DNA from: a virus
Lineage: Duplodnaviria > Caudoviricetes
Direction: 5' to 3' (one strand)
Virus record (IMG/VR): IMGVR_UViG_3300009873_000007
Location: 9,693-73,692 of that record
DNA length: 64,000 nt
Of this stretch, positions 27,883-62,404 are shown in pieces. The notes below the pieces were generated by a model, which worked only from the letters and a program-made list of their open reading frames with translations, did no database searches and was not told the DNA's origin. Each line of letters begins with the position of its first letter. Within the stretch, counting starts at the first letter, position 1. The position numbers and the translations under genes were made by a program.

Positions 27883-30800
27883 GTGACAACTTATTGGATT
27901 GCCCCTCCGACGCACGCTACCACCCCCGGCAATGATTCTACCGGCAACGGCAGCAACGCTACCCCGTGGGCGACCTTTGCCAAAGCCATCACGGTGCTAG
28001 TCGCTGGTGACACGCTCAAGGTCAAAGCCGGCACATACACCCCTGCCGCCAAAGTTGAATTTAAGATCAACGGCACATCCTCCGGTAATCCTGTGGTTGT
28101 GGAAGCCGACGATCCCACCAACAAGCCGACTGTTGATGGTCAATACAACATTCCGCCAGATGACGACCCAGAGGCCGGCTATACCTCCACAAACGGGACT
28201 CGCGGTTTGTTTGGCGGCTTAATCACCATTCGCACCTCCTATTTCACCTGGCGCAATATCAATGTCAAGCGGTCGCAAGGTCGTGGATTCAATGTGTACG
28301 GCTCTCCATCCTCGCGCATCACAAATATCGTGATAGAAGATTGTGAAATACAGAAAAGCCGTACAAATAATGTTGCGATTCAGGATGCAAACTATGTAAC
28401 CGTTCGCCGCAACCACTCGCATCACTCGTGCGATTATCTCGAAGGTTTGACCAATTCCATTAGTCCCGACGACAAATGGTGTGCCTCCATCAAAGGCATC
28501 AAGATGGGCAATATCACCTTCGAGTATAACCATGTCCACACGGGCTGGGGCGAAGGGATGATCTTCGGGCCAGGGAGTGAGAATTGCACAAGCCGCTACA
28601 ATCTCATTTACAACACGGCAAGCGGCAAAATGTATGTGCAACGTGGAACCGGCCATCGCATTTATGGCAACCTTATTTATGACACTCGTGATAACGAGGT
28701 ACACAAAGGTGCATCCGGTTCTACCGGCATGTCGGTGCGTAACGAGGCTGGCAGCGAAGGCACACCGATTGATGATGTGTGGTTCTACAATAACATCAGC
28801 ATCGGCAACAGTTACAATTTTACGCTAGGTGGATCGCAGGGCGGCTCAGAGGAAGCTGTAACTGGCGTCAAAGTATGGCATAACATTTTTGTCAATGCCA
28901 TATTGCCGGGAACACGTCCGTTTGCTGCACTATCTATCACAGGCAATACCTACATTGTCGATTGTGAATTTGTCAATAACATCATCTGGCAGCCAGATCA
29001 CGAGTATTGCAATCGCAACAGTCTACCGAATAATCCAGATGGTACGCCAGCGGATTTAGATTTTCGTGACAATGCCTGGGATAGTGCTAGTGGTGATGTC
29101 CCTGCGTGGTTGCGAGACGGCAATGATGATTACAGCATTAGCTTGTTTGCACCAAATACCGCATTGACGCCAGGCACGACAGCTTACAATAACTATCGAC
29201 CAACGACTGATTATATCGGTGAAACAATAGCCGGTGTCACCACGGATTTCCTGGGTGAGCTACGAGCGACGTATTTCAAGGGCGGGCTGCCGAGTGGTAA
29301 CAATGTCACACCACCGCCAGCCTCTACCGGTCTAGTACGTGCCGGCGTGACCTACAATACGGTAGGTCAAGCGACCGGCACAGTTGATCACACCGATTCG
29401 ACTGGTATGGCAGGCGAGACGCCATCGGCGGCGCTAGTGTTTGCTTCGCATGCTACAAGCGCCGGTAGTGTGGCGCAATTCGCTCGTCTGTCTGTGGGTG
29501 TCTATGCGACCGGTCAGGCTGTGGGTACAATCCGGCTTCGTGATGCTGTAGGGACAGCCGCTAACCACACGTCGGGCTCTACATCAGCACTCGTGCAACT
29601 TCGCCACAACAGCACGACGGCGGTTGACCACCAGCAAGAAGCTGATGCTTTTATTGCCAACGGTCTACGCACCACACGAACCGTACTGCCATCAATGGAT
29701 GCTGGTACGATTACGGCATTGTTTGGCGGTACTGCGTTCCGTGCGCAATCCGGTACGGTGACTTGCTCAAGCAGTAATGGCGGCACTGCTACGATCTCAC
29801 TGCCGTGGACGCCATCAATATTGTTTTTGTTCTGTACGAATACCGACTTCGCCGGTACTAACTCTAGTGGCGGCGCTATGATGTCGCATGGTGTGGCGAC
29901 GGGAACAGGTGCACAGTTCGCATTGTCGTTCTACGCATCCACAGCTATCAATAGTGAGGCGACGGCATATTTAACCAATGCCAGCATCGGGTATAACGCA
30001 GCAAATTCACAAACTCATACGATCACGACCTGGGGTGCAAGCACTGTTCTCACCACTGGCGGCACAACCGGCACACGCATCTATGAGTATTTGGCGTTGG
30101 AAGTGACGGGCGCTGCGGTCTATGCGGGAACATTCAGCAGCCGTACAACCACAGGCAGTCAGACACTATCCGGGCCAAACTTTGAACCTGCCATCTGCGG
30201 CACATTTATGTCGCTTGTGGATGCGTTGAACACGAGCAAAACTGATGCGCAGGCCGGTGCAATGGCGGTCAGTGTGTTTACCGCCGATGCCGAGGAATCA
30301 ATCGCCTTTAGCTATCAGGATAACGTTGCCACGACCAACAGCGGCACGGTGTACGATGCCAAAGCCATCAATATCATGCAGCATGATCAGAGTGCGGGCA
30401 TCACAGCCACATTAACGAGCATGGGCGGCACTGGCCCAGTGCTGGATTACACTGCGGTGCTCGGTTCCGCCCGCTATGGCATCCTGTGGGCCATTGAGGC
30501 GCAGAATGTAACGAGTATCGTTAAGCTCGTGCCAGAGGTGTTGAGGTTGATTGACAACACTAGCCGCCGCATGGCGATGTGGAGGTTGAAAACCGAAACA
30601 CTCAATCTTGTCGAGTCTGTGCGCAACGTGCGAGGGTTAAGCCGGGTTGCCAGTGAGGTATTGAATCTCGTGGAATCCGTTAGCTATCTGTATGGTGCGG
30701 TAAAAGTCATCAGCGAGGTATTGAATCTCGTTGAAGGTGTGATTCCGCATCGCAAATTGCGCCAGGTGATTATCGAGATTCTCAATTTTCACGAAACGGT

Positions 30801-31131
30801 ACTTCCACGCCGGGGATTCGCACGAATTATCAATGAGACGCTGAATCTCGTAGAGGGCAATATCGGCAAGAAACTATTGCTGATGATCATCAATGAGGTG
30901 CTAGACCTGGCAGAGTCAATTGTTCCGGCTCGTGCAATTCGACGTGTAATCAACGAGGGTCTTTTGCTTGATGAATCCATCCGGCGCATCCGTGGATTAA
31001 AAGAGATCATCAGCGAAACGCTGAATCTGTCTGAAATCACCGACAAGATCAAGAACTTTACCGTGATTCGCAGCATCATTCGCATCGCCGGCAACGTGAC
31101 ACGGCGCATCCGGCTAGGGGGCCGCCTATGA
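27883..31131 (+). CDS. Large fibre/depolymerase: parallel beta-helix, Thr/Gly-rich middle, basic 20-aa repeats
   Basis: GNDSTGNGS..PWATFAKA...GDTLKVKAGTY beta-helix start; Asn-rich coils; I(N/S)ExLNLxE repeats. Confidence 0.8.
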   Translation: MTTYWIAPPTHATTPGNDSTGNGSNATPWATFAKAITVLVAGDTLKVKAGTYTPAAKVEFKINGTSSGNPVVVEADDPTNKPTVDGQYNIPPDDDPEAGYTSTNGTRGLFGGLITIRTSYFTWRNINVKRSQGRGFNVYGSPSSRITNIVIEDCEIQKSRTNNVAIQDANYVTVRRNHSHHSCDYLEGLTNSISPDDKWCASIKGIKMGNITFEYNHVHTGWGEGMIFGPGSENCTSRYNLIYNTASGKMYVQRGTGHRIYGNLIYDTRDNEVHKGASGSTGMSVRNEAGSEGTPIDDVWFYNNISIGNSYNFTLGGSQGGSEEAVTGVKVWHNIFVNAILPGTRPFAALSITGNTYIVDCEFVNNIIWQPDHEYCNRNSLPNNPDGTPADLDFRDNAWDSASGDVPAWLRDGNDDYSISLFAPNTALTPGTTAYNNYRPTTDYIGETIAGVTTDFLGELRATYFKGGLPSGNNVTPPPASTGLVRAGVTYNTVGQATGTVDHTDSTGMAGETPSAALVFASHATSAGSVAQFARLSVGVYATGQAVGTIRLRDAVGTAANHTSGSTSALVQLRHNSTTAVDHQQEADAFIANGLRTTRTVLPSMDAGTITALFGGTAFRAQSGTVTCSSSNGGTATISLPWTPSILFLFCTNTDFAGTNSSGGAMMSHGVATGTGAQFALSFYASTAINSEATAYLTNASIGYNAANSQTHTITTWGASTVLTTGGTTGTRIYEYLALEVTGAAVYAGTFSSRTTTGSQTLSGPNFEPAICGTFMSLVDALNTSKTDAQAGAMAVSVFTADAEESIAFSYQDNVATTNSGTVYDAKAINIMQHDQSAGITATLTSMGGTGPVLDYTAVLGSARYGILWAIEAQNVTSIVKLVPEVLRLIDNTSRRMAMWRLKTETLNLVESVRNVRGLSRVASEVLNLVESVSYLYGAVKVISEVLNLVEGVIPHRKLRQVIIEILNFHETVLPRRGFARIINETLNLVEGNIGKKLLLMIINEVLDLAESIVPARAIRRVINEGLLLDESIRRIRGLKEIISETLNLSEITDKIKNFTVIRSIIRIAGNVTRRIRLGGRL

Positions 31132-31751
31132 CGGCAACTGCACAGAATTTTGCATTTTACCAGGGTGAGACGAAAACGTTGGAGGTGCTTGTCACCGATG
31201 GCGATAATGAGAATGCGCCGTTTTCACTGACCAACGTAATCGAAATCGACTGGGGTGCATGGGTTGACATCAACACTCGCATCCTCACCAAAAAATTGAC
31301 GCTAGGCGCACCGGATAATATTGTTCGGTTTAGTTCTGCCGGTACAGATGATGCGCTGCGAATGAATTTCACCGTTACCGATACGCAAATCCTGAACGGT
31401 GATTACTACCACGAATGTCGCATTATCGATAGTAGCGGTAATCAAGACGTAATTTTCATCGGCACAATGACGATTGGTGACAGTCGCACGGTGCAACCAT
31501 CGATGCTCGGTTCGGAGACTATCACGGTTACGGAAGCGGTAACAGTATCGGTGCAAGCGACCTCCACACCGTCTATCAGCGTGAGTGATAGCGTAACAGT
31601 GACGGAAGCGGTAACGCTGATGATTGAATCATACATCGTTGTAAGCGATGGCGTGAGCGTGGCCGAGTTGATTGAGTTGATCCTGGTGTCACTGGCGAAT
31701 GTGAGTGAGTCGATTACGTTGGCCGAGGAAGTGACGGTGGCGATTGAGTAA
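31128..31751 (+). CDS. BppU-like adaptor with three acidic repeats
   Basis: FYQGETKTLEVLVTD...YYHECRI; C-terminal SVSDSVTVTEAV repeats. Confidence 0.65.
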   Translation: MTATAQNFAFYQGETKTLEVLVTDGDNENAPFSLTNVIEIDWGAWVDINTRILTKKLTLGAPDNIVRFSSAGTDDALRMNFTVTDTQILNGDYYHECRIIDSSGNQDVIFIGTMTIGDSRTVQPSMLGSETITVTEAVTVSVQATSTPSISVSDSVTVTEAVTLMIESYIVVSDGVSVAELIELILVSLANVSESITLAEEVTVAIE

Positions 31752-31888
31752 ATTGTTTAGAACACTGACAGGATTGCTGCTGTACTGGTGCGATCCCGTC
31801 TTTCGCAAAATGGTAGACAACAAACGAAAAAACGTTGAAACGATTCAGCGTGGCGAGAGTGTATTAGCAGTCAAGAGGAGCAACGGCA

Positions 31889-32521
31889 ATGTTTCTAAAA
31901 TTGAAATCGGCGGCGCTTGAACACTACCGGCGCACTTATCCACAATACTGGCTGGATTGTCTGGTTGACCGGATTATGAAGGATGTACGCAATCAGCGTG
32001 CGAAATTTGACGGTGTGCGATTGACATTCGGCCAGGTGTTGGCGGTCAAACGCCATGCGTATCTCGATTTGGAGTTGGTGATTCCCGGCCTAAACATCGT
32101 CACCAACAATGGCGATCTGTACTATGCTCAGATGGCCGCTGGCGAGTCGCCTGCATCCACAATCGACTACGATGGTAGTAATGGTGGCTTGCGCCTCGGT
32201 AGCGGATCAACATCACCGACTAAGACGAGCAACGATGTGACAACGTTTCTTGCTGGTACAGGTCATGCGTTGGATGCGACCTACGAGAAAACCAACGATG
32301 GTGATAGCGATAATACCGGCGCTGCTACCGATACGGTGACGTGGCGATACTCATACACCACATCGGAAGGCAATGTCAGCGGCATCAATGAGGGAGCGAT
32401 TGTCGATAATCGCACTACGCCAAACACGGCATTGACGCATTTTCTCTTTGCTGCAACATTCCAGAAAACGAGTTCAGACACCCTGAAGTGCTTCGCCAAT
32501 CATAATTATTTGGGAGTCTAG
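31889..32521 (+). CDS. Tail-collar/fibre-base-like protein
   Basis: NIVTNNG...LRLGSGSTSP...GNVSGINEGAI pattern; similar to 12741-13253. Confidence 0.55.
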   Translation: MFLKLKSAALEHYRRTYPQYWLDCLVDRIMKDVRNQRAKFDGVRLTFGQVLAVKRHAYLDLELVIPGLNIVTNNGDLYYAQMAAGESPASTIDYDGSNGGLRLGSGSTSPTKTSNDVTTFLAGTGHALDATYEKTNDGDSDNTGAATDTVTWRYSYTTSEGNVSGINEGAIVDNRTTPNTALTHFLFAATFQKTSSDTLKCFANHNYLGV

Positions 32522-32586
32522 TCTTATTGCATAAATAAAAAATTATGCAATATAAATTGTAAGAGGATTGTGACACAACCGCAACC

Positions 32587-33078
32587 ATGAATCTCACCAT
32601 CACCGGCCCAACCGATCCATTCGCCGCCCTGCGTCAGTTCTTTGCGAGGCTCGAACGTCCCGGCAATGGTGAGATTCGCCAGGTTGCTACTGCTATAGCG
32701 CAGGGTCATCAGGCGAATTTTAGCGGTGAGCGTAGCGGCAGCGGCGAAGCATGGGCAGAACTGTCACGAGTAACGGTGCTGGAGCGTGTGCAACAAGGCT
32801 ACCCCGGCGCACATCCGATCCTGAGACGGTCGGGGCGTCTACGTGATAGCCTTGTCAATCCTGCGCATCCTGACCACTACCAGGCGATGAATCGTGCCGC
32901 CGATGGATGGTCGCTAGAGGTTGGAACGAATGTTGATTATGCGTTGGAACTAGAGATCGGTGAAGGTCGAATGCCAGCTAGACCGTTTACCGGCCTGTCT
33001 GACGATGCGGAAAATCGAATTGTGACCGTACTGGAACACGTTATCGACCAGGCGAGACAACGTTATTTGAGGAAATAG
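32587..33078 (+). CDS. Phage virion morphogenesis protein (Mu gpG-like)
   Basis: WAELS, ILRRSGRLRDSL, VGTNVDYA, MPARPFTG motifs. Confidence 0.85.
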   Translation: MNLTITGPTDPFAALRQFFARLERPGNGEIRQVATAIAQGHQANFSGERSGSGEAWAELSRVTVLERVQQGYPGAHPILRRSGRLRDSLVNPAHPDHYQAMNRAADGWSLEVGTNVDYALELEIGEGRMPARPFTGLSDDAENRIVTVLEHVIDQARQRYLRK

Positions 33079-36000
33079 TGCCAGATCAAAGACTCCTTTA
33101 CACCGTTGCGCTGAGTGTGGGTAACGCTCAGGCTGAACTAAATAAACTGACACAGATTGTGCAACGCACCAATGCGCAACTCGCCAATCAGCCAGCGGCT
33201 CGTGCAATAGCGACGGGTGCGATTGAGGCTGAACGACGACTAACGGCTACTACCAGAGCAGAAGCACAATCACGGATAGCAGCAGCACGGGCAGAGGCGA
33301 ACGAACGGACACAACAAGCACGGGCGGCGGCAGAAGGTGTCATCCAACAAGAGCGCAGAATCACACAACAGGCGGTAGCCGAAGCACGTCAGCGAGCGCA
33401 GGCGCAACGAGCGCCAACAGTGGCGTCCACACCACCACCAGGGGGTACGGGTGGTGGGCTAGGGCTTGGTGGCGCTGTGCTTGGTGGTTTAGCTGGCTAT
33501 GCGACCATTCAGGGCGTACAAGAGATTGGCCGGCAAGCGATTGCTCTATCCGAGCTTGGCACACAGGCTAATCGTGCTGAGGCTGGATTTCGTATTCTAT
33601 CTGGCGGTGCTACTGAAGCCGCCAGGCGCATCCGTGCTATCCAAGAGGCGGCAGGCGGTACAATTGATTCACTGACCGCAATGCAGGTTGGCAATCAGGC
33701 CATTGCACTGGGACTCGCTAAAACAACATCTGAATTTGGCAAGCTGACCACAGCGGCCAGAGCCGTGGCGCTTGTATCGCCAATCATCCACGATGTACAA
33801 GGCGCAATGGCCGAACTTGGTTTGGCGGCTGCAAACCTATCATTTCGGCGCTTGGATCAGCTAGGGTTATCGGTTGGCGAAGTCAAAGATCGCATGGCCG
33901 AATTGCAAGCCGAAAATGCCAACCTGGATGATTCGCAGGCGTTTTTGGCGGCCAGCGTTGACATTTTAAATACCAAATATGGCGCTCTATTGCAGAGCAC
34001 CGAAGCGCAAGCGTCTGGTTTTGAACGACTGAAAGTTGCCATCCAAGAGGCGAGATTGGCGCTGGCTGAAGGGCCTGTTGGTGGTGGCATTGATGCGCTG
34101 TTGGGCGGCCTTGTGCCAACCGTGGAAGCTATCGGCGGCACACCAGGCGAAGCGGTCGTCAACTGGAAACTATTGCTTGGTATTAGCGACCTGGAAGATA
34201 ACATTGAACGCATCAAGACGTTGATTGACCCGAAAGGGTTATCGTCTGTACTTGAACAAGGGCTACGTTTTGCTACCGGCAACCAGGTAAATCAGCAACA
34301 ATTGCTAGAGGTGGTGAATGTCACTGAGCAGTACAACGCTGCTATTGAACGTGGTGTGCCAGGGTTGGAGGGTTATCGGGTAGCACTAGCAGCTATCGCA
34401 GAACAGGCATCACGCACTGGTAGCCTGACCGCCGAAAATCAGGTTGCGCTCGATGCGCTTTCTCTTTCCATCTCTCAGGCAGAATCCGCTTACAACAGAC
34501 TAAATAGTGCTAATGTTGATGTCAACCTTGAAGCCTTCGAGGGACTAGACGATCTTTCCAAGCGCATCACTGACGCTTTTACCGCCGCCGATGCCGCTGT
34601 ACGTGCCGGCATTCCTGGCGCTGAGGAGTACCGTAGTGCAATTTCGCAACTAGCCGCCGATATTGCCAGCGGTACAGGCACAATGGAGGAGCAATCAGCG
34701 GCGCTAGGTGAGTTAGAAAGCTGGCTCACATTTGCCGGTGATGCGTCTAATCTCCTCACACAAGCGCAAGGCGGCACGGCTAACGCATCTGGCATCATGG
34801 GATCATCGGCGTTGGATGCTGCACAACTCATCTCAATGCTTGGTGATGAGTCGCTGACCTCTGCGGAAAAGGTCAACATCCTGCGGGCGGCGCTGGCTGG
34901 CGTTTCTGCGTTACAGGGACAATTCGACGCTGCACGTAGACAAGCGGATGCAGCGGTGCTCGGTGCGTCAAAATCGTTGATTGACATTGGCGGCGATCCA
35001 TTTGCCTATTTACGCCAAAATCAAATCAGCGATACGCAGATTAAACAGCTACAGGCGCAATATCCCGATCCTAAAGAGTTTCAGCTTGCACTAGCACAAC
35101 AAATTGAAATGAGTACCGCTGGCGCTGAGGCGCAAATCGAAGCCGTGCGGGAATCCGAACGAGCCATGAAACGGGCAGCATCGGAATCCGAAAAAGCATT
35201 CAAAAAGGCCGCACAAGCTGCTGAGGATGCTTGGCAGGATGCCGCCAGTTCGCTGCAACGTGGGTTGGAAACAACACCAGGACTATTTGGCTCATCAAAA
35301 GTCACACAGGAACAATTAACACTGGCCGAAGGTGGCATACCGCAGAACTTTGCCGATAATTTTATCCGTCGCCTTGAAGCCGAGATCAACGAAAAGAAAG
35401 ATTTATTCCCCGATGTCTCACTCGACAAAGCACGAGAGGCGCTATCTCGTGTGGGTATCATCCCTGGCGAAACTGTGGAAGCCACGCTGATCCAGTTACG
35501 CCAAGCCTGGGAGAATAGCGCATTGTTTGCGCATCCGGCGAACCTTGAGTTAATCGACCAAGCGGCGGTCAAAGAGAATTTGGCGTTGCAGGAAAAAGCC
35601 GAGCAGGGCCGCAAAAACATCTATCAATTTTTCGCCAGCACGATTGATGCAGCGTTGAAACCATTTTTACCAGGTGGTGAGGGGTTGGAGAAACCTTCAG
35701 GGTTGCCAGAGGGGTACACTGTGGATGCTGATGGTAATGTGACAGCACCGCAGGGCGCATGGGCAGGCATCGATCAGGATAAATTAGAGCAGATTCAGCA
35801 ATTGCCGAACAAGATCATCGAAACAGCACTGACGCAGGTTGACCAAGCACTAGCCGGTACAGGTGGCATTGGCGGCGCTGGTGGTCTAACTGGTGGCCTA
35901 GCCGCTGGTGTGGAGGGTGCGCCGCCGATCCAGGGCTTAACTGGTGGCGTGCTAACCATCTCCACAATTGAAATAGCGCCGGATGCGTTGGAATCAGCAC

Positions 36001-36323
36001 TAGCCGGTCTATCTGGCGGCATCAATGAAGAAAATCAAGCCATGTTGGAAGGTATCGGGGACGGGATGGCACAGTTTATCGATGTCGGTCTAATCGGTTA
36101 CGACTTCGCACCGGCGGCCACATCGATTATCACGAATCTGCGCAGCGGGTTTGCGACCGAAGATAATCTTGACAAGCTCATTGGCATCGGTGACGGTTTT
36201 ATGGAGTTCATCAGGCAAGGCATGTCAGCACGAGCGGGCCGGCCAGAGTTTGCCGAGGATTTAGTCAATATTCTCGTGTCTGCTTTTGCCGAACAATTGC
36301 AGGAGGCATTAGCAAATGGCTGA
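33078..36323 (+). CDS. Tape measure protein
   Basis: 1081 aa, Ala/Gln/Leu-rich helical; upstream of tail tip genes. Confidence 0.85.
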   Translation: MPDQRLLYTVALSVGNAQAELNKLTQIVQRTNAQLANQPAARAIATGAIEAERRLTATTRAEAQSRIAAARAEANERTQQARAAAEGVIQQERRITQQAVAEARQRAQAQRAPTVASTPPPGGTGGGLGLGGAVLGGLAGYATIQGVQEIGRQAIALSELGTQANRAEAGFRILSGGATEAARRIRAIQEAAGGTIDSLTAMQVGNQAIALGLAKTTSEFGKLTTAARAVALVSPIIHDVQGAMAELGLAAANLSFRRLDQLGLSVGEVKDRMAELQAENANLDDSQAFLAASVDILNTKYGALLQSTEAQASGFERLKVAIQEARLALAEGPVGGGIDALLGGLVPTVEAIGGTPGEAVVNWKLLLGISDLEDNIERIKTLIDPKGLSSVLEQGLRFATGNQVNQQQLLEVVNVTEQYNAAIERGVPGLEGYRVALAAIAEQASRTGSLTAENQVALDALSLSISQAESAYNRLNSANVDVNLEAFEGLDDLSKRITDAFTAADAAVRAGIPGAEEYRSAISQLAADIASGTGTMEEQSAALGELESWLTFAGDASNLLTQAQGGTANASGIMGSSALDAAQLISMLGDESLTSAEKVNILRAALAGVSALQGQFDAARRQADAAVLGASKSLIDIGGDPFAYLRQNQISDTQIKQLQAQYPDPKEFQLALAQQIEMSTAGAEAQIEAVRESERAMKRAASESEKAFKKAAQAAEDAWQDAASSLQRGLETTPGLFGSSKVTQEQLTLAEGGIPQNFADNFIRRLEAEINEKKDLFPDVSLDKAREALSRVGIIPGETVEATLIQLRQAWENSALFAHPANLELIDQAAVKENLALQEKAEQGRKNIYQFFASTIDAALKPFLPGGEGLEKPSGLPEGYTVDADGNVTAPQGAWAGIDQDKLEQIQQLPNKIIETALTQVDQALAGTGGIGGAGGLTGGLAAGVEGAPPIQGLTGGVLTISTIEIAPDALESALAGLSGGINEENQAMLEGIGDGMAQFIDVGLIGYDFAPAATSIITNLRSGFATEDNLDKLIGIGDGFMEFIRQGMSARAGRPEFAEDLVNILVSAFAEQLQEALANG

Positions 36324-36708
36324 TCTTCCATTGCCGATGCAGATCGGAACATATACGCTCACACGAGTTGATGCGGCTGGTACGTATTTGTTGGGCGGTC
36401 GTGGTGATTATAAATTCGAGCCATACACGTTGACCGGGCGGCGTAATGGTCGTGGGTTGCAAGTCGCTACGGGATATGCAAAAATCGTGTGGAAGTGGAG
36501 TACATTGCCGTGGATCGACTGGCAATTCCTGGCAGGCGTGCTATTGTTGGAGCAACCATCTAGGCGATTCACGTTCGCACGATTCTACAATCAATTCAAC
36601 TCGCTGCAAACATTCTCTCATTGCATCGTCCACACGCCTACGTATGAGGGTCAGTATGGCGGCGACTTTCTCAACGTGGTGCTGAATATCGACAGGATCA
36701 TGGTATGA
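36316..36708 (+). CDS. Distal tail (Dit-like) protein
   Basis: Position after TMP; GYAKIVWKW pattern. Confidence 0.55.
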   Translation: MADLPLPMQIGTYTLTRVDAAGTYLLGGRGDYKFEPYTLTGRRNGRGLQVATGYAKIVWKWSTLPWIDWQFLAGVLLLEQPSRRFTFARFYNQFNSLQTFSHCIVHTPTYEGQYGGDFLNVVLNIDRIMV

Positions 36709-36911
36709 CCCTAGAAGAATCGTTTGCTTCAGTTCTCACGGGATTGATGGAACAGATAAAAGCCAGAAGGATGGCCGGCGATCCTGAACCTGTAATTTCT
36801 GAGTTTTGGGATACTTTCTTGTGGGAAGCGATGAAACCTAAATCGGAGATTGATACTAATGGCAACCAAACCACCAACACAGGCCGAACGCCTGTATATG
36901 CTGCTGGCTGA
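36705..36911 (+). CDS. Hypothetical protein
   Basis: ATGA overlap; 68 aa. Confidence 0.5.
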   Translation: MTLEESFASVLTGLMEQIKARRMAGDPEPVISEFWDTFLWEAMKPKSEIDTNGNQTTNTGRTPVYAAG

Positions 36912-37074
36912 TGCGTTGTGGAGTGCAGAGGGAACAGACAGCGCCGCCACGGTGCGCAATCGAGTGATGCAAGGTGTGGATGATGCCACACGCACTGAGG
37001 TGGAAGCGTTAGTCCGTGGCCGACGACTACTGTATACGCAACAGGCAACGCCAGAAAGTGCGGAAGCCGAATAG
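36859..37074 (+). CDS. Hypothetical protein
   Basis: GGAG upstream; 71 aa. Confidence 0.5.
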   Translation: MATKPPTQAERLYMLLADALWSAEGTDSAATVRNRVMQGVDDATRTEVEALVRGRRLLYTQQATPESAEAE

Positions 37075-37090
37075 GTGTGGTAGAATGAAA

Positions 37091-37260
37091 GTCGTTGCGG
37101 CCTCGACAGCGAACGCAGGCAGGTGAATACACCATCGAGGCTTACACTGGCGTCGGTGTGGATGGACACACAGGGATTGACCAACACGCAAACATCCTTT
37201 GAGGTGTACCCGTAGGTGACGGTTTCAGCAGCCTACTAGCCGGATACCGGCACGCCAGTA
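37091..37260 (+). ncRNA. Candidate structured ncRNA
   Basis: Extended -10 TGGTAGAAT at 37078-37086; stems GCCTCGA/TCGAGGC, ACTGGCGT/ACGCCAGT, AGGGAT/ATCCTT, GTAGG/CCTAC. Confidence 0.5.
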
Positions 37261-37273
37261 TAACTACATATCA

Positions 37274-37335
37274 CGCTTAGAACGTTCTCGTTGACAAAGC
37301 GACAGTATCCCATCGGGGGTATTGTCGCTTTTTTT
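37274..37335 (+). promoter_or_regulatory. Late antiterminator/terminator element, copy C
   Basis: CGCTT-AG-AACG-TTCT-CGTT-GACA-AAGCG overlapping terminator AAAGCGACAGTATCC..GGGTATTGTCGCTTT-TTTT. Confidence 0.75.
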
Positions 37336-37346
37336 GTTTCCTATGT

Positions 37347-40079
37347 ATGTCCTTTTATTGCGAATGGCGTGCGCTAATCGGGCCACGATACGACCATTAT
37401 AACTGGTGGCAGCTTAATTACGGTGCGACAACCGAATTAAGCTTTAACACGTTCCTCGCACAACCGATCCTCCCAAATTCGACAGTTATCACACCATCCT
37501 CGTTGACCTATTTTTCCACACCTGGCGGCGGCTTGTGGATTGGGCCAGGTGCGACCGGCGAACAATGGGCATATTTTCGCTACACTGGCACGACTGGCAG
37601 TCAGTTTGGTGGTCTCACCAAGCAACAGATCGATACTGAATATACCGGCAATCATTCGATCAATTCCATTGTCTACCAGTGGTATCCAGTGGATGGCGAC
37701 GATGGTACGTACATCCTCAACGAGATGAGCGATTCATCATTCGCCGCTGTAGGTATGTGGACGCTGAAGCTAAAAGGCGTCAACTTCCCGCAATGGGCGC
37801 TGCGCAACAATCATCTCTGTGTAGTTCAGACTCGCACAAGTCCGACCGGCACATGGGCGATTCAGAACGTAGGCGTTATTGATGGGCCGGCGGTGCGTGA
37901 TGACTGGCAGGGGTTGAGAGAATGGACAGTAACGGTTCGGTCGCTTGATTTTGTCTATGGTAAAAATCCGGTGAAGGGTGTCAAAGTTGGTCAGTTGAAC
38001 GTCGCCAAACTATCACAAGCTTCGGCGTCAATGCCGCTTGTCAATCCATTCGAGGAGCGTCACCGCGGCGAATTTAAGGCAGCGGAACCATCATTTGATG
38101 CTGGTGTAGTCATTGACGAAGACCCTGGTACGCTATGGATCGGGGAACGATACATCGGCAGTCAGTATCCGATTTATCGACAAGCGACTGAAGATGGAAA
38201 CAATGGCAAATCCGGCGGCACATTCCATCAACTTTATTTGAATCCTCCTCCTGGCACGCCGCCGGGCGCACGGTGGATAGAGATTATCGTTCTATCTGGC
38301 GGCTTGAACGGCTGGACGATTGTTTCCTCCAACGGCAATAATCGCACAGAGATTTGTAGTCTTGCCGGCGCTGGCGATGTAGAGAATGATCCAGATCGTA
38401 ACCAATCCAAATTGATTATTTGTGAAGATCAAGAAGTTTTTACTCGTCTCAATCCACTGGCGCAACCTGGCGCAATTATCGAGCGCCGTGCGTGGTTTCG
38501 GCACATTCGAGCGGCGGGCGGTGATCTGTGGTTGCGACAACCACAGCTAGGATTTTGGTACAACCGTGTGGCCTGGGGTGACGGCAATTATGGTAGCGAT
38601 CCCTGGCCGGATCACGAGGATGCGCCAGAGCGGGCATTTGGTGGTGGCATGATTCGAGCGCCAGGGCCAGGAGAAAATATCCGCTATATGTTTAGCGGTA
38701 ATGCTCAAAATCTTGCCAACAGTGGGAATACCCACTGGCGAGTTGAGCTAATCAAAAATGCCGGATACGAGATTACGACCTCACCGGATGAATGGGTGAT
38801 GATTACCTTGCCGCCGCTGGGGTTAAAACTTACTGCGGATATTTCATTTGAGCGACCATCGGCGGGCGAAACATTACGGATTAGTAATGACGGCGGGCCA
38901 TCCACAGCAGGGCTACCGGATAGTGGTACATTGCTATTTGCGGCGGAGCAAATCACCTACAACGGCAAAACCACTGACGGTGTAACGGTTGTGGCTCGTG
39001 GCGCAAACAGTACCATTGCCGATGACCACAAGGCGGGAGATACGGTTTATCTCCTCGTCAGCGGCATTGCAACCGATGGGCAACTCGTCAAATCCGTTGG
39101 ATGGTATCGTTATCTCGGACTCATCAACCCCAAAAATTTTACTTTTCGATACTCTCTCCTTGCTGGCAATGCTCGCGATCCTGGTCAACCTGACTGGCAG
39201 AACGATTGGCAAAATGCCGTAGTCGATTTTGATAATTACACAGCGCCGCAATGGGAGTATTTTTTTAGTCCGTCCATTCGAGCGAAGCATTTATTGCTGC
39301 AAATCGAACGGATGAATGTCGATCCGGCTCGTGCCAGGGTGAATGAGATCAGGGCGATTCTCGATCCTGCGGCGTACTCCTCTGATCTGTGGCTGCCGGA
39401 TGGTCAGCCGTCATTTGCGGTATTGCGTGCCATCATCCTGCAGTCCGGCTATCCTGTGGATGCCATTAGCTATGAGAACGCTAATTCACCAACCATCAGC
39501 GATGTGATCACCGCAGATGATACCATGTGGACGGTGGCAGTAGATTTTGCTGAGTACGCCAACTGTCAGATTAGGGTGCGTAGGGATAGCAAGATTGAAC
39601 TCTATAACAATCCACTGTGGACAAACACACTAGCACCGTCATTCACCTGGACGGATGAAAATACCGCTGCTGTGGATGTCAACTGGCAGAACGGCATCGG
39701 CGTCAATCAGGTCAAATTGAAATGGAAACGGTTCAACGCTAGTGAGAGCGGCGAACAATCGTATCCATCCACACCGCAGGCGGTTGGTCAGCCATTAGAG
39801 CTTGACGAGGTGAGATACGCCAACGACGCTGCGATGCTGGCGGCTATCCGTCGCAAATTCACGCTCGCACGCTATCCAACATTGATTGATGTTGAGTCCG
39901 CCGATGCGCAACCGACTTTCCGGCCAGGGGGAGTGTGCAAGACGCAATGGCGACTACATGGGGAGATGAATGCGTTAGATCGTACTTGTTTCGTTGTGGA
40001 AGCGCAGCATTCGATTGAGGAAAATCAGTGGTATACGGCGGCGTCATTGCAGCAGGTGGGGAGGGAGCAAGAAGACTAA
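37347..40079 (+). CDS. Tail tip/baseplate hub protein with putative carbohydrate-binding inserts
   Basis: 910 aa after Dit-like gene; PPPGTPPGARWIEI and KHLLLQI..VNEIRA beta-sandwich patterns. Confidence 0.7.
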   Translation: MSFYCEWRALIGPRYDHYNWWQLNYGATTELSFNTFLAQPILPNSTVITPSSLTYFSTPGGGLWIGPGATGEQWAYFRYTGTTGSQFGGLTKQQIDTEYTGNHSINSIVYQWYPVDGDDGTYILNEMSDSSFAAVGMWTLKLKGVNFPQWALRNNHLCVVQTRTSPTGTWAIQNVGVIDGPAVRDDWQGLREWTVTVRSLDFVYGKNPVKGVKVGQLNVAKLSQASASMPLVNPFEERHRGEFKAAEPSFDAGVVIDEDPGTLWIGERYIGSQYPIYRQATEDGNNGKSGGTFHQLYLNPPPGTPPGARWIEIIVLSGGLNGWTIVSSNGNNRTEICSLAGAGDVENDPDRNQSKLIICEDQEVFTRLNPLAQPGAIIERRAWFRHIRAAGGDLWLRQPQLGFWYNRVAWGDGNYGSDPWPDHEDAPERAFGGGMIRAPGPGENIRYMFSGNAQNLANSGNTHWRVELIKNAGYEITTSPDEWVMITLPPLGLKLTADISFERPSAGETLRISNDGGPSTAGLPDSGTLLFAAEQITYNGKTTDGVTVVARGANSTIADDHKAGDTVYLLVSGIATDGQLVKSVGWYRYLGLINPKNFTFRYSLLAGNARDPGQPDWQNDWQNAVVDFDNYTAPQWEYFFSPSIRAKHLLLQIERMNVDPARARVNEIRAILDPAAYSSDLWLPDGQPSFAVLRAIILQSGYPVDAISYENANSPTISDVITADDTMWTVAVDFAEYANCQIRVRRDSKIELYNNPLWTNTLAPSFTWTDENTAAVDVNWQNGIGVNQVKLKWKRFNASESGEQSYPSTPQAVGQPLELDEVRYANDAAMLAAIRRKFTLARYPTLIDVESADAQPTFRPGGVCKTQWRLHGEMNALDRTCFVVEAQHSIEENQWYTAASLQQVGREQED

Positions 40080-43000
40080 TGGCAACCACACCACGTATCC
40101 GCCGAATGCAGGCACGGCGCAATCTTCGTGACCTGAAATCAACGCTATCGGACAATTACAGCACCAACGAAACCACACGTACTGCCACGGCGTGGGGGCG
40201 TGGCTATGTGCAGATCAATGGGCAACTCTATCCTGGCTCGTTAGATGGGCCTGCGGGTGAGGTCATCAATGCAGGCAGACCAGCGGCGGCGAACTATGTG
40301 CCAAAAACCGGCGCTGGTGTGGTTGTCGTGAATGGCAGCGTTAGCGGTAGTGGCGATGTGGGTGCGGCTGGTGGCAGCATCAATGGCACTGTACGATGGC
40401 GTGATATTGATTTTACCGGATCAAATATCACGAGTGTACAGACCAGACGGCTAGGCGATCTTCAGGGTCTTGGTGAAGATGTGCTACCTCAGTACGTTCA
40501 CAAAGACAACGCACGCACGATCACTGCACAACACACGTTTGCGCCAGAAACAGCCAAAGCGCCGTTTGTCCTCGGTTCGTTGGCGCTGGGCCAGCTAGTC
40601 ACTGGCCTAAATAGTCAATATGTTGGCGGCCAGCTTGAAAACGTATTCATGCGGAAATACGCCAACAGTCCGCTAGATATGAATCAATATCAAATAACAA
40701 GTAATGATGCTGATATTGCAACGTATCTAGGTCGTATTGCATTAGGTGGTATGCAATTTGCCGGTCATGCTGGATTTAGCCATCGTGCGCAGGTAGGACA
40801 GGGCAGTTTTGCTTTGTTGCAGAACGCCAGCGGCGACACTATCATAAACGCTGCCAACACTCGCACGCTCCATTTTCGCATCAACAATCAAAACAAGTTG
40901 CAATTATCCGCTTCTACATTTCGGATGTTTGCTGACACCGATTCTACGGTCTACGCCGGGTATAGTGCTATCGGCCACATGGGTCATCTCGGCTATGCGG
41001 GATTTGCTCACCAGAATCAGGCAACACAGACAGGATATGCACTATTACAGGATGGTGGCGGACATACACTCCTAAATGCAGCAACGAGCCGTTCTATCTT
41101 CCTCAAAACCGGCAACGTCAATCAATTATCCATTTCTTCTGGATTGATGAACGTCCACAGCGCCGTGGCGGTATCGACGGACAACTATCAAAGCCAGGTG
41201 CGTGGGTGGCGGCTAACCTACAGCGGCGAGGCGGATTTCCGCTATCTCTATGTTGATGAGATGCACGCCAAGCTGTTTATTGCTGACTTGGAACAAGCGT
41301 TAGCTGGCGGTCAGATCATCGCAAAATCGGTGTGTCTATTAGCTCAAGTGTTTACAGCACCATCGCCAGGGGGAGCACCGGTGATTCTGCGGGTGCGGGA
41401 TTTGCCCTCCGCTCCAGGCATGGCGGTCTTTCAGCCAAATGACATCATCCGTTTGCGCATTATGAGCCGTGCAAATGGCAGTTTGATTCTCTCCGATTGT
41501 TGGGGCAAAGTCGATAATTTCATTCCCGCCGGCGATGGCACGCAAGCCTGGGATTTCTTTCGCTCGGCAACGCCGAACGCCGGGAGTATGAGCGCAGGCC
41601 ATCAAGTGCCTGTGGATAGCATCGTACTCGACTATGGCACGAGTGGCAACGGCTTCCATGAGATCAACGCCATTGATGGTCGGTATGGAGCGAACTCACC
41701 ATACAGCCAGCTAGTGACCTGGACGGATCATCCAGCGACGGGTCAGGTTGTCCGAGTGCGTACCGGCAATCTAACAGGGTTGAACTTCCCCGGCGAATTT
41801 GGATTTTACACGCAAGGATCGACCAATTCGCAGTATCTCAAAGCGACTAATACCGGTCTCACCCTGCGCAATGCCGATGTGAGAGCGTACAATGGATCGC
41901 TGCCGACCGTCCACATTAGCAGCGCCGATGGTTCGATGAAACTTGGTGCTGACATCAATAATCCCGCGCTGACCACATTCGATTTTGTCGGCACAAATGG
42001 TGCATGGCGATTAGGGCCAGTCGGAACCAACAAGCCGAATCTGTACTGGACAGCCACGGAAATGCAGTTGCGAATGAACGCAACGCCAGTCATCACGCTA
42101 GACGCCAGCGGCAACAGCTATTTCTCTGGCGTAATGACCATCGGCACATCTGGCGAGATTCGTCAGGGTAGTGGGTCATTAGCCGCCAACAGTTTCACTG
42201 GTCTACGCATCCATCGCAGCGGTGAGGTAGGGTTGATCACCGGTTACAATGGCAGCATTCCGCAATGGTACGCTAGTACCGATGGTAGAATGTATGCTGG
42301 CGGCGGCAATGTCGTATTGTCCGCCGATGGCATCGATTTGCAAGCCGATACGACGCCATCCGATGGCCGTAAAGTCATTTCCTGGTGGCAGAATGTCGGC
42401 ACTCGCACCGGCAACGCACAATCAACCATCCGTGGATTTGCCGATCCGGTGTTTCAGGCAGAGACATTAGAGTTATCGGTTCGTGGATCACAGACTAGAA
42501 ACATAAGCGCCATTCGTCTACTTGCAACAAACAACGCTGGCACAACCAGCTATTTGCAGATGTTCAGCACTGACGGCATCTCCACAAATACCGGTCTAGC
42601 GGTTGTGCCTGACCCACAGGCCATTAACGCCACTCTGGGACTTATTCCCGGCCAGATTCGCACCCACTGGCTGGCAATGAAAAGCACAACAACACCGGCG
42701 GTTGTGAGCGGTCACGCCATGATGTATCAGGATAGCGCCGATAATGGCATCAAGGTGCTGTTTGATAGTGGCGTATCATATCGGGTTTTCGATCCGCTTG
42801 CCGTGGGTTTTACGTCTCTCACACTCGGCACTGGCTGGGCGTTCTGGGGAGCACCGTATCATCCGCTAATGTATACTCGCCAGTACAACGGCGTAATTGA
42901 GGTACGAGGGTTGGTTAAGGCAACCACAGCAACGCCAGCTACCGCAATCGCTGTCATGCCAGCGGGATCACGGCCACCGTACCGATTGATTTTTGCCTGC

Positions 43001-43141
43001 ATGAGCATCAATGGTGATGGCAATACGGCAGCAGTGCGACGTGTGGATGTGGACACGAACGGGGAAATTACGCCAACCGGTTGGACACCAGGGTTAAATG
43101 ACTGGATTTCAATTCATTTGATTTATTCACGAGGAGGGTAA
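40079..43141 (+). CDS. Tail fibre/receptor-binding protein
   Basis: About 1020 aa Gly-rich; C-terminal TLGTGW...NGVIEVRGLVK...PAGSRPP receptor-type domain. Confidence 0.8.
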   Translation: MATTPRIRRMQARRNLRDLKSTLSDNYSTNETTRTATAWGRGYVQINGQLYPGSLDGPAGEVINAGRPAAANYVPKTGAGVVVVNGSVSGSGDVGAAGGSINGTVRWRDIDFTGSNITSVQTRRLGDLQGLGEDVLPQYVHKDNARTITAQHTFAPETAKAPFVLGSLALGQLVTGLNSQYVGGQLENVFMRKYANSPLDMNQYQITSNDADIATYLGRIALGGMQFAGHAGFSHRAQVGQGSFALLQNASGDTIINAANTRTLHFRINNQNKLQLSASTFRMFADTDSTVYAGYSAIGHMGHLGYAGFAHQNQATQTGYALLQDGGGHTLLNAATSRSIFLKTGNVNQLSISSGLMNVHSAVAVSTDNYQSQVRGWRLTYSGEADFRYLYVDEMHAKLFIADLEQALAGGQIIAKSVCLLAQVFTAPSPGGAPVILRVRDLPSAPGMAVFQPNDIIRLRIMSRANGSLILSDCWGKVDNFIPAGDGTQAWDFFRSATPNAGSMSAGHQVPVDSIVLDYGTSGNGFHEINAIDGRYGANSPYSQLVTWTDHPATGQVVRVRTGNLTGLNFPGEFGFYTQGSTNSQYLKATNTGLTLRNADVRAYNGSLPTVHISSADGSMKLGADINNPALTTFDFVGTNGAWRLGPVGTNKPNLYWTATEMQLRMNATPVITLDASGNSYFSGVMTIGTSGEIRQGSGSLAANSFTGLRIHRSGEVGLITGYNGSIPQWYASTDGRMYAGGGNVVLSADGIDLQADTTPSDGRKVISWWQNVGTRTGNAQSTIRGFADPVFQAETLELSVRGSQTRNISAIRLLATNNAGTTSYLQMFSTDGISTNTGLAVVPDPQAINATLGLIPGQIRTHWLAMKSTTTPAVVSGHAMMYQDSADNGIKVLFDSGVSYRVFDPLAVGFTSLTLGTGWAFWGAPYHPLMYTRQYNGVIEVRGLVKATTATPATAIAVMPAGSRPPYRLIFACMSINGDGNTAAVRRVDVDTNGEITPTGWTPGLNDWISIHLIYSRGG

Positions 43142-46114: not shown

Positions 46115-46456
46115 TCAGCGCACTGGTCGCACCAGACCGCCCGGCAAAAACACCGGCGGCAAGCCGCGGCTTGCCATGACGATGATGTTGGCGGTCGGAA
46201 ACCGCCGAGCGATGTAGCCAGCGGCAACGCTGTGGCCGGGTAAAATCACGCAATCGACGTTGAACGGATTGCCGTGGATTTCCGGCAATGCCAGGGCTTC
46301 GTCGGCCAGGGCATCCAGTTGCGACGTGAGCGGCTGGGCCATGTCCAACTGGACTTTGATGGTATGGACGACGGCATCGCCAGCACCGTACTCGTCGGTG
46401 ATGATGCGCTGCGCTTCGGCGTTGAGCGGATGCGAGAAATTGATTACGACGATCAT
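46115..46456 (-). CDS. csx15: Csx15-like protein (type III CRISPR-associated family homologue)
   Basis: INFSHPL, VQLDMAQPLTSQ, ILPG..VAA, RFP and LPPVF match the Csx15 motif order as recalled; CAGGAG RBS. Confidence 0.78.
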   Translation of the reverse strand: MIVVINFSHPLNAEAQRIITDEYGAGDAVVHTIKVQLDMAQPLTSQLDALADEALALPEIHGNPFNVDCVILPGHSVAAGYIARRFPTANIIVMASRGLPPVFLPGGLVRPVR

Positions 46457-46508
46457 GTTCTGTTCTCCTGATTGATTGTGCCAGGTGGGGGGACCCTGGC
46501 GGGGTGGG

Positions 46509-53811: not shown

Positions 53812-53823
53812 TAGGCAAAAATA

Positions 53824-53868
53824 CCATACGGTACGGTATGGAAAAACATACGATACAGTATGGTATGG
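53824..53868. promoter_or_regulatory. Tandem palindromic binding sites
   Basis: CATAC-N6-GTATG at 53825-53840 and 53847-53862. Confidence 0.65.
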
Positions 53869-60582: not shown

Positions 60583-61068
60583 ATGGCTAAAGAAATCCTC
60601 TTAACCAAAGGTAAAGTTGCTATCGTTGATGATGCCGATTACGAGTATCTATCAAGATGGAAATGGCAGGTCTCTAAACAAGGATACGCCCGTCGCACTT
60701 ATTACAACAACGGCAAACGAACAAAACTCTTTATGCACCTTGCCATTCTTCAGCCACCTCCAGGTTTCATCATCGATCATATCAATGGTAACTCGCTGGA
60801 TAACCGCCGTGAAAACTTACGGCTTGCAACACCAAGCCAAAATAACGCTAATCGCCATCGGCCTAATCCTAAAATACATTCACAGTATAAAGGAGTAACG
60901 TTAGACACACGGCGACACCGATGGTATGCACAGATCAGCCATAATGACTGTGTAATTCATATCGGTACATTCACCAATGAACTCGAAGCCGCAAAAGCCT
61001 ACGATGCTAAAGCCAAAGAATTCTTTGGCGAGTTCGCTTACACGAATCTTGACGCTCAACTTTACTAG
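60583..61068 (+). CDS. HNH endonuclease with AP2 domain
   Basis: IDHINGNSLDNRRENLR; SQYKGV...WYAQI...AAKAYDAKA...FGEFA. Confidence 0.95.
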   Translation: MAKEILLTKGKVAIVDDADYEYLSRWKWQVSKQGYARRTYYNNGKRTKLFMHLAILQPPPGFIIDHINGNSLDNRRENLRLATPSQNNANRHRPNPKIHSQYKGVTLDTRRHRWYAQISHNDCVIHIGTFTNELEAAKAYDAKAKEFFGEFAYTNLDAQLY

Positions 61069-61206
61069 TAACTAACAGTTTCACTTCGCACTTTGACAAC
61101 CGAATAGCCTTAAATACTAAACATTACATTGATACCTGCGTGGATACTATCATGGAGTTGACAATTTGCTAATCATTCCGGCCAAGTTTACCACCGGCAT
61201 TCTATC

Positions 61207-62112
61207 TCATTCGATGTCTTGCCACAATTCATCGAACATGCCTTGTACCAAGTCAGGCGAGATTTTCAAGTACTTCTCGGTGGTGGCGATGTTTGCATGG
61301 CCCAAAAGTGCCTGAATCAGTCGAGTGCTTGCACCCATTTTCAACATCTCGACGGCGAACCCATGCCGGTATCCATGTGGTGGTATCCAGTCCAACGCAG
61401 CATTTTCCGCCCTGGTCTTCATCGTCTCATAAATCGCCTGTTTGGTGATTGGCCCTCGCACCGTACCTCGACTAGTGGCAGAAAAGAATAACCACGGCGC
61501 GGGCTTACCATCAGAGTCTAGCACCTGAGGTCTGTGGACGTGAAGCCACTGAAACAACGGTTGCACTAGCTCATGTGGAAATGGCTGGAAGCGCACTCTT
61601 GATCCTTTACCGAGCACCGCAAGCCGGCGGGCATTCATATCCACATCAACCACACGCAGGTTAGCGCACTCGCTGACACGTAAGCCGGTACAGGCAAGAA
61701 TGTGGATGATGAGTTTATCACGGTGGTCAATCCAGGTCACAAGCCGGATTTTCTCTAGCATGTGTTGAACGTATGACCGTGCGGCAATCGGCGGGATGTG
61801 TTCAGGGACTTTGGGACGCTTCAGATGAATCGTAGGGTCTTTAACAATCAATTCCACCTCGATACACCAGCGATAGAAACAAATCAACGTGGTAGCCGCC
61901 TGACGGGTTGTGGAAGCCGAATAACTCTTGCGCATGTGCGCCAGAAACATTTGTAGGTCGAGTAGCTTCGTAGTGGTGTAGGTGTGGCTGTTAGCGGCCA
62001 GCCAGTCACCATAATGCCTCAAGTGAAACTTGTACCATTTGATGGTTTTGATGGAGCAACCAAGCGCAACACGACTATCAAGGAACAGATCAAATACATC
62101 GCTGTCAGGCAT
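61207..62112 (-). CDS. Tyrosine recombinase/integrase
   Basis: TGLRVSE, GKG, HGYRH, LLGH, TTEKY catalytic motifs. Confidence 0.95.
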   Translation of the reverse strand: MPDSDVFDLFLDSRVALGCSIKTIKWYKFHLRHYGDWLAANSHTYTTTKLLDLQMFLAHMRKSYSASTTRQAATTLICFYRWCIEVELIVKDPTIHLKRPKVPEHIPPIAARSYVQHMLEKIRLVTWIDHRDKLIIHILACTGLRVSECANLRVVDVDMNARRLAVLGKGSRVRFQPFPHELVQPLFQWLHVHRPQVLDSDGKPAPWLFFSATSRGTVRGPITKQAIYETMKTRAENAALDWIPPHGYRHGFAVEMLKMGASTRLIQALLGHANIATTEKYLKISPDLVQGMFDELWQDIE

Positions 62113-62404
62113 GGGGAACTCCTGTCGGTTGTCTACAAATGGATATATCCATTGTAGCATGATTTATTTGATTGTGCGTGATGAGTTTGGCAGAGGTGAG
62201 AAATCCATTATAGCTGATGAGATGAACAAGATCGCTGACAGTTTTTTGAAGATTTTGTGAAGCGGGCGAGTTGGTTGGAAATAATGCAAGAAAAAAGTGA
62301 AACGCAAGGAAACCAAAGTTATCCTGCGTTTATTCTAACCGGTAAAGTGTAGTTTGTCAGGTCAAGATCAGTAGTAAATTAGGTCAGGGAAAGAGGATGG
62401 GTCA

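Follow-up and report, generated by a model that had tools for sequence, protein, structure and literature searches.

Type III CRISPR immunity relies on cyclic-oligoadenylate (cOA) signalling, and to our knowledge few viral counter-measures to it have been described, namely two ring nucleases, AcrIII-1 and AcrIII-2, together with 2H phosphodiesterases. Here we characterize the gene for a Csx15-like protein of 113 residues, P0001, on a metagenomic phage sequence (bases 9693-73692 of the 73,692-bp linear IMG/VR virus record IMGVR_UViG_3300009873_000007). This stretch of 64,000 nucleotides was analysed as a whole and is referred to as the window; coordinates are window positions. The coding sequence, an open reading frame (ORF) at 46115..46456 on the minus strand, ends in a TGA stop codon (46115-46117) and is preceded by a Shine-Dalgarno-like AGGAG, read from the sequence, 8 nt 5' of its ATG (46465..46469, minus strand). 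The initial annotation had taken the gene for a phage-encoded Csx15 homologue, co-opted from a host, and for a candidate anti-type III CRISPR protein of a possibly new class.

In canonical Csx15, cyclic tetra-adenylate (cA4) is sandwiched between two faces: the ‘head’, which carries a Ser-His loop and belongs to the bottom dimer of the crystal stack, and the ‘tail’, which carries the His of an HGR motif and three arginines and belongs to the top dimer (bioRxiv 10.64898/2026.01.21.700848). The motifs that the initial annotation had listed could each be assigned to residues of P0001, in the order it gave, and all are encoded on the minus strand. As judged from clade conservation, NFSHPL (residues 6-11; 46424..46441) is the head-face loop after strand 1, and its S8 and H9 are equivalent to PfCsx15 S9 and H11, CliCsx15 H13 and HaCsx15 H8 (bioRxiv 10.64898/2026.01.21.700848; 10.64898/2026.10.26.761840). 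VQLD (residues 35-38; 46343..46354) occupies the head-face loop after strand 2 and is followed by QPLTSQ at residues 41-46. LPGHS (residues 72-76; 46229..46243), part of LPGHSVAA (72-79), lies in the loop after strand 3. Next comes RRFP (residues 84-87; 46196..46207), a short loop that replaces the canonical LHGRxGYFP and lacks its conserved tail-face His. PPVF (residues 100-103; 46148..46159), within LPPVF (99-103), forms a beta-hairpin turn, where F103 aligns with CliCsx15 Y113 and PfCsx15 F106. The C-terminus, LVRPVR (residues 108-113; 46118..46135), stops where the canonical RxxxRxxR helix begins. In a HMMER alignment of the family profile with CbCash, the numbering of which reproduces the residue types named in PMC13462974, Q36 corresponds to R204 of CbCash, H75 (the residue after LPG) to F241 and F103 to F275.

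The gene 3' of the ORF starts within ~15 nt, indicating a tightly packed leftward operon. A truncation artefact was considered for the missing C-terminal helix and ruled out, given this close spacing and the fact that the whole clade of relatives described below ends alike.

Homology and predicted fold

The resemblance to Csx15 was examined by several profile comparisons. The NCBIfam model NF040560 (CAS_Csx15) matched P0001 with E=1.5e-7 over profile positions 1-77 of 125, at a score of 31.7 bits that does not reach the curated equivalog cut-off of 35 bits; the record searched in six frames scored 30.2 bits. The PADLOC Csx15/20 model matched as well (E=9.5e-4). A phmmer search of 1.84 billion representatives returned 63 relatives, and NF040560 matched 55 of the 57 that were aligned, with a best E of 2.4e-30. 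When a profile of 13 close relatives was compared by hhalign with one built from 24 canonical Csx15 sequences, the two aligned over 112 columns with a probability of 99.7% and E=7.6e-26, so that the homology extends over the whole 113 residues. Among PDB sequences, the family profile found the Csx15 domain of CbCash as its best solved-structure match (9ylu, E=9.5e-11), followed by CliCsx15 (9teu, 5.8e-8) and PfCsx15 (9tet, 6.4e-7), and the 13-sequence clade profile found PfCsx15 weakly (E=0.011). A phmmer search of the PDB sequences with the single protein gave chance matches only. The PHROGs hold no family for the protein, and a Pfam scan up to E 10 returned a chance-level sulfotransferase match and no match to DUF1874 (AcrIII-1/Crn2).

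The AlphaFold2 model is very confident, with a mean predicted local distance difference test score of 97.6, and shows elements in the order beta-alpha-beta-alpha-beta-alpha-beta-beta. This predicted five-stranded Rossmannoid fold superposes on ESM-Atlas clusters named Csx15 with template modelling (TM) scores of 0.79-0.80 and a root-mean-square deviation of 2.2-2.4 Å over 110 residues, predicted models being compared on both sides. Those clusters are mostly from Chloroflexota, in keeping with the remark in the initial annotation that Csx15 is common in that phylum. A Foldseek search of the PDB returned nothing at E<=0.001, and the fold-search matches included no solved Csx15 chain, though 9teu, 9tet and 9ylu are present in the PDB sequence copy. 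By profile and predicted fold, then, P0001 is homologous to Csx15, as had been proposed.

By language-model features, the ESM-Atlas clusters nearest to P0001 were the all-viral ‘Pam3_gp32’ (PF23992; score 0.83, which we treat as a lead only; structure TM 0.58) and Csx20/MJ1673 (PF27247), with one cluster that is 64% viral (TM 0.67). Both may be further small phage families with the same Rossmannoid fold.

Head-face and tail-face residues across the family

When 168 family members were sorted by motif, they split cleanly by HGRxGYFP and the C-terminal RxxARxxR: canonical proteins have both, whereas P0001 and its relatives have neither. The N-terminal loop is nearly invariant in the clade of P0001 (N6 100%, F7 95%, S8 95%, H9 98%, P10 100%). 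The N-F-S-H-P loop, Q36, D38, Q46, P73, A79 and the PPxF/Y hairpin are common to the clade and to canonical Csx15, as are the VQxD and LPGxS motifs in which several of these residues lie, and the F103 column of the clade holds 80% F and 9% W. The canonical invariants that the clade lacks are the WQT loop (91-96% conserved in canonical proteins), the H (95%), G (100%) and R (95%) of the HGR loop, and the three arginines of RxxxRxxR (100% each among 61 canonical sequences). The position of the WQT loop before strand 3 suggests that it too belongs to the tail face. The clade proteins stop a few residues past the last strand, which makes P0001 ~12-15 residues shorter than canonical Csx15, and the basic residues found there, R110 (59%) and R84 (31%), are semi-conserved. 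The initial annotation had recorded a reduction of HGRxGxFP to RRFP; the loop is indeed shortened, but the divergence was understated, since neither the RxxxRxxR helix nor the WQT loop is present.

Published work assigns roles to these residues. The conserved tail-face His of HGRxGYFP is H82 in PfCsx15 and H90 in CliCsx15, and mutation of the latter (H90A) abolishes oligomerisation (bioRxiv 10.64898/2026.01.21.700848). The RxxxRxxR arginines are R118, R122 and R125 in HaCsx15 and R116, R120 and R123 in PfCsx15 (bioRxiv 10.64898/2026.10.26.761840; 10.64898/2026.01.21.700848). Catalysis by HaCsx15 depends on H8 and R125, and its cA4-dependent multimerisation on R118 (bioRxiv 10.64898/2026.10.26.761840); the two arginines reach the composite active site from the tail face of the adjacent dimer. 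PfCsx15 H11A no longer binds (bioRxiv 10.64898/2026.01.21.700848). The tail-face His and arginines of canonical Csx15 are described as clamping phosphates, driving head-to-tail filaments and completing a composite active site (bioRxiv 10.64898/2026.01.21.700848; 10.64898/2026.10.26.761840). On this published face assignment, the sequence of P0001 retains, of the two half-sites, that of the head only. The canonical ring-nuclease mechanism cannot be assumed for the clade, because the tail-face residues on which filaments and catalysis depend are lost in it.

The Csx15 domain of CbCash provides a case by which a head face alone can bind cA4, because in the CbCash filament cA4 touches its own Csx15 dimer only, via F241 and F275, and R204 moves in (PMC13462974). 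The residues that stack on the adenines of cA4 are F241 and F275 in CbCash, Y113 in CliCsx15 and F106 in PfCsx15 (PMC13462974; bioRxiv 10.64898/2026.01.21.700848); as noted above, the first two align with H75 and F103 of P0001. CbCash differs from P0001 in being a defence effector fused to a Schlafen tRNase, in carrying Gln in place of the head-face His and in keeping a C-terminal extension.

In a maximum-likelihood tree of 152 members, P0001 fell in a set of 72 rows, all of them tail-less, separated by a branch with a Shimodaira-Hasegawa-like approximate likelihood ratio test support of 98 from the remaining 80, of which 61 are canonical and 19 tail-less. With the trait's own columns taken out, namely those of the HGR-loop region and all past residue 109, P0001 still fell in a starred set of 67 rows, every one of them from this clade. 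The family tree is unrooted and assigns neither form as ancestral. What the present analysis contributes is that, as judged from sequence, the phage-borne sequences around the gene form a clade of their own, defined by the loss of the whole tail face. The picture of a simply co-opted host gene has to be revised to this extent, since P0001 sits in a separate phage-borne clade without tail-face residues.

All eight informative genomic contexts of the tail-less relatives are phage or prophage and none adjoins cas genes. They span two tail-less groups, with five from the clade of P0001, two from a second group and one, P0067, not placed separately. P0002 is accompanied by an integrase, a helix-turn-helix (HTH) repressor, an RNase H-like exonuclease and an excisionase-like HTH protein, P0067 by an FtsK-like ATPase and several consecutive small ORFans, and P0076, on two contigs, by RecT, T5orf172 and HNH proteins with an integrase nearby. 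An integrase, a ribbon-helix-helix protein and a tail-like protein with a Laminin_G domain surround P0082. The second tail-less group, which lies on the canonical side of the tree, is represented by P0102 (tape measure, GH25 lysin, DnaB, Lar) and P0097 (tape measure, Dit, Gp80). P0003 and P0096 have small-gene or PAPS-reductase contexts that are compatible with phage and likewise hold no adjacent cas genes, and three further relatives lie on ~1-kb contigs whose context is uninformative.

On the two related phage contigs of P0076 (L010:6962-9754 and L011:5461-8147), the Csx15-like gene comes fourth in an operon that runs divergently from a gene for an HTH_3 repressor-like protein, a typical early anti-defence position; a 185-aa ORFan and a T5orf172/MUG113 protein come after it.

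A further IMG/VR record (UViG_3300011436_000156; L002:4647-5003, plus strand) encodes a tail-less Csx15-like ORF of 118 residues with NFSHPL, VQLD and LPGQ and no RxxxRxxR. A search with a pattern built from 13 sequences returned this one IMG/VR locus and none in the species-representative genomes, a narrow pattern from which absence is not implied. In a search of 5.8 billion proteins, the tail-less matches, down to E ~1e-16, came without any NCBI or UniRef record, and the canonical matches carried NCBI names such as ‘CRISPR-associated protein Csx15’ (Anaerolineae, Ktedonobacteraceae, Bacillota). That ~70 sequence clusters keep the invariant head-face residues across unrelated phage backbones indicates, at the level of sequence, purifying selection on the ligand site.

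Proposed function and its alternatives

We tentatively propose that P0001 is a dimeric head-face binder of cA4, acting more as a sponge than as a canonical ring nuclease and damping type III signalling, a reading that we regard as quite possible though short of probable. The protein would form a homodimer, like all studied Csx15 proteins, and its head face (the NFSHP, VQxD and LPGxS loops and the PPxF hairpin) would bind cA4 as the CbCash Csx15 domain does with a lone dimer. Expressed from the leftward small-gene block during infection or lysogeny, it would lower free cA4 and so blunt cA4-activated type III effectors. Because it has neither the tail-face His nor any of the three C-terminal arginines, sequestration, with at most slow cleavage, would be expected instead of the canonical filament-dependent ring-nuclease reaction.

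This proposal has precedents among canonical Csx15 proteins. In vivo, immunity that depends on cA4 was neutralised by CliCsx15, and PfCsx15 is a cA4 sponge (bioRxiv 10.64898/2026.01.21.700848). The statement in the initial annotation that Csx15 has been proposed to bind or degrade cOA agrees with reports of cA4 binding and/or cleavage and of type III immunity neutralised on over-expression (bioRxiv 10.64898/2026.01.21.700848; 10.64898/2026.10.26.761840). In 2024, Csx15 was a predicted ring nuclease, absent from 28,114 phage genomes (bioRxiv 10.1101/2024.09.24.614671). In January 2026 it was described as a cA4 sponge or slow ring nuclease with head-to-tail stacking, and was again reported absent from phages (bioRxiv 10.64898/2026.01.21.700848). 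In October 2026, Klimavicius et al. described a broad-specificity, filament-dependent ring nuclease; their searches turned up a single viral homologue in NCBI, with >20 contributed by env_nr and IMG/VR, mostly in prophage regions, and they tentatively named viral Csx15 AcrIII-3, with no functional test (bioRxiv 10.64898/2026.10.26.761840). The claim to a new anti-CRISPR class therefore does not stand, since viral IMG/VR homologues of Csx15 are already in print under that name. P0001, a Csx15 homologue on a metagenomic IMG/VR virus record with a proposed anti-type III role, fits the AcrIII-3 idea as a candidate and is a plausible anti-CRISPR of the kind already proposed. The preprint describes viral copies as rare (>20 sequences), and the example modelled there closely resembles HaCsx15 (bioRxiv 10.64898/2026.10.26.761840); the tail-less clade, or P0001 itself, may be among its sequences.

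Other viral proteins offer functional rather than family parallels. AcrIII-2, a viral SAVED ring nuclease (9r8s), also counters type III signalling, but it consists of two fused Csx15-like lobes (235 aa), shows an identity of ~5-13% and has catalytic Arg residues without a direct equivalent in P0001. AcrIII-1 (DUF1874/Crn2), which is small, stand-alone and viral and removes cA4, would be a functional analogue, but its fold and family are unrelated. Acb2 and the Tad1/Tad2 sponges are small phage proteins that sequester an immune second messenger, the mode proposed here for P0001, but they have unrelated folds and target the signals of CBASS (cyclic-oligonucleotide-based anti-phage signalling systems) and Thoeris. 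We know of no proven type III cOA sponge of phage origin.

Several points weigh against a cA4 sponge. The match to NF040560 is below the curated cut-off and covers part of the profile only. All tail-face residues are absent, and cA4 binding could be weak because the equivalents of R118, R125 and H90 are among them. The literature holds no biochemical or genetic test of any viral Csx15. Chi et al. consider sponging a poor strategy, given how much cOA type III systems produce. That H9 is 98% conserved would fit catalysis as well as binding; this near-invariance is the main unexplained point, being equally compatible with binding and with another catalytic arrangement.

The last point leads to the alternative that P0001 is a true ring nuclease, in which H9 is catalytic, a partner R110 or R84 or head-to-head dimers take the place of the tail arginines, and cA4 is degraded as by AcrIII-1 and AcrIII-2. 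S8 and H9 are 95-98% conserved in the clade, mutants H8A of HaCsx15 and H13A of CliCsx15 mark the corresponding His as catalytic there (bioRxiv 10.64898/2026.10.26.761840; 10.64898/2026.01.21.700848), the pure sensor CbCash has Gln at this position, and R110 is kept in 59% of the clade. Enzymes are moreover expected to suit phages better than sponges against type III systems (Chi et al., Discussion). We nevertheless consider it doubtful that the protein is such an enzyme: R125 and R118, each essential in HaCsx15, both lack an equivalent in P0001, the central His (H90 of CliCsx15) is missing, and the alternative active site is without structural or assay support.

The protein might instead have no counter-defence role, being a nucleotide-binding or regulatory protein for the phage's own use or the decaying remnant of a captured host gene. 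That the neighbouring genes all lack a known function and that the family-defining tail-face residues are gone would fit this. Against it, the ORF is intact with a Shine-Dalgarno site, the fold is predicted with high confidence, and the selection on head-face residues across ~70 clusters in unrelated phage backbones concerns a site shared with cOA-binding proteins. We hold it to be distinctly unlikely.

Canonical Csx15 cleaves not only cA4 but the range from cA3 to cA6 (cyclic tri- to hexa-adenylate), as well as 3'3'3'-cAAG and 2'3'3'-cAAA (bioRxiv 10.64898/2026.10.26.761840), and a remodelled tail face could shift specificity. P0001 might accordingly bind or cleave another ligand (CBASS trinucleotides, cA3 or cA6) and counter CBASS or another signalling defence. 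This seems quite improbable, since the residues of solved Csx15 domains that contact the adenines of cA4 are kept in P0001, and since the link of Csx15 to Cas10 is far stronger than that to CBASS (bioRxiv 10.64898/2026.10.26.761840).

Finally, the selective retention of the head face with complete loss of the tail face, together with the requirement of Csx15 and Cash activity for filaments (bioRxiv 10.64898/2026.10.26.761840; PMC13462974), would suit a dominant-negative cap that attaches to host filaments of Csx15-domain proteins (Csx15, or effectors such as Cash or Csx1-Csx15 fusions) at their tail end and blocks elongation, but this is very improbable: stacking in CbCash is not mediated by cA4 and its contacts run via the Schlafen domains (PMC13462974), blocking a host ring nuclease would bring the phage no gain, Csx15-fusion effectors are rare, with <20 sequences per group (bioRxiv 10.64898/2026.10.26.761840), and there is no direct evidence for it.

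Whichever activity P0001 has, a sizeable and sequence-diverse branch of Csx15 is carried by phages and prophages and systematically lacks the tail face required for filament-dependent catalysis, a loss that bears directly on mechanism. If these proteins bind cA4, they amount to a natural experiment that parts head-face binding from tail-face catalysis and to a candidate non-enzymatic anti-type III factor; if they do not, the clade marks an as yet undescribed role for the CARF/SAVED-like fold in the early regions of phages. In the most far-reaching reading, the tail-less clade would be a functional class of its own, a ‘half-site’ Csx15, and either the first phage type III cOA sponge, with a lone dimer binding on its head face, or a chain-terminating cap that poisons the cA4-induced filaments of host Csx15-domain proteins; we think this unlikely, but if true it would be a counter-defence mechanism unlike every characterised AcrIII ring nuclease.

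The record and its genomic setting

The record derives from an activated sludge metagenome, which is the only sequencing dataset that holds it and probably its source sample; no RNA dataset is listed among the sequencing runs that hold it. CheckV estimates its completeness at 54%. Phage hallmarks in the record are TerL (the large terminase subunit), portal, DnaB, clamp and integrase. All of these except the integrase lie on the plus strand (DnaB as a DnaB-type helicase, the clamp as a clamp-like processivity factor), which also encodes large tail/fibre proteins. The Csx15-like gene is housed in a minus-strand block of small genes running from ~59 kb down to 43.8 kb, in which one HTH protein is the only product with a PHROG or Pfam family. 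The statement of the initial annotation that the gene stands alone among small genes, with neither cas genes nor an array, holds: its neighbours are ORFans without PHROG or Pfam families, Cas10 (TIGR02578, TIGR02577) was not found in the 73.7 kb, and neither a CRISPR-type tandem array nor an Rfam match was detected in the record. The gene differs in this from canonical Csx15, being phage-encoded and not beside Cas10, though its product may act in trans. No tRNA was found in the window.

The phage is distant from those in GenBank. Among 50,697 GenBank phages, megablast of the 12 kb around the gene and tblastn of the 113-residue protein gave no match, and TerL is at most ~30% identical to that of any GenBank phage, so that no close relative is found there. 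As judged from TerL, the structural module is far removed from those of described phages. The TerL relatives in IMG/VR are short fragments.

The closest TerL in the species-representative genomes (55% identity), the only match there, lies on a 1.4-kb contig (L015, JAKQEE010000087.1) binned to a Pseudomonadota metagenome-assembled genome, a weak hint to the host.

Four very large proteins of 910-1082 aa are encoded on the plus strand at 27883-43141; they match no PHROG family at E<=1e-5 and are presumably tail, fibre or tape-measure proteins. Towards the end of the record lie an HNH_3-AP2 endonuclease gene (60583-61068, plus strand), a tyrosine integrase gene (61207-62160, minus strand) and a gene for a SNF2-family helicase that is cut by the record end (62405-64000, plus strand); the region 60583-64000 is a lysogeny or accessory module, or possibly a prophage border. 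In a gap of the leftward small-gene block, a 27-bp unit with an internal palindrome (ACCATACAGTACGGTATGG) occurs twice in tandem (53817-53868) and could be an operator or origin-like site.
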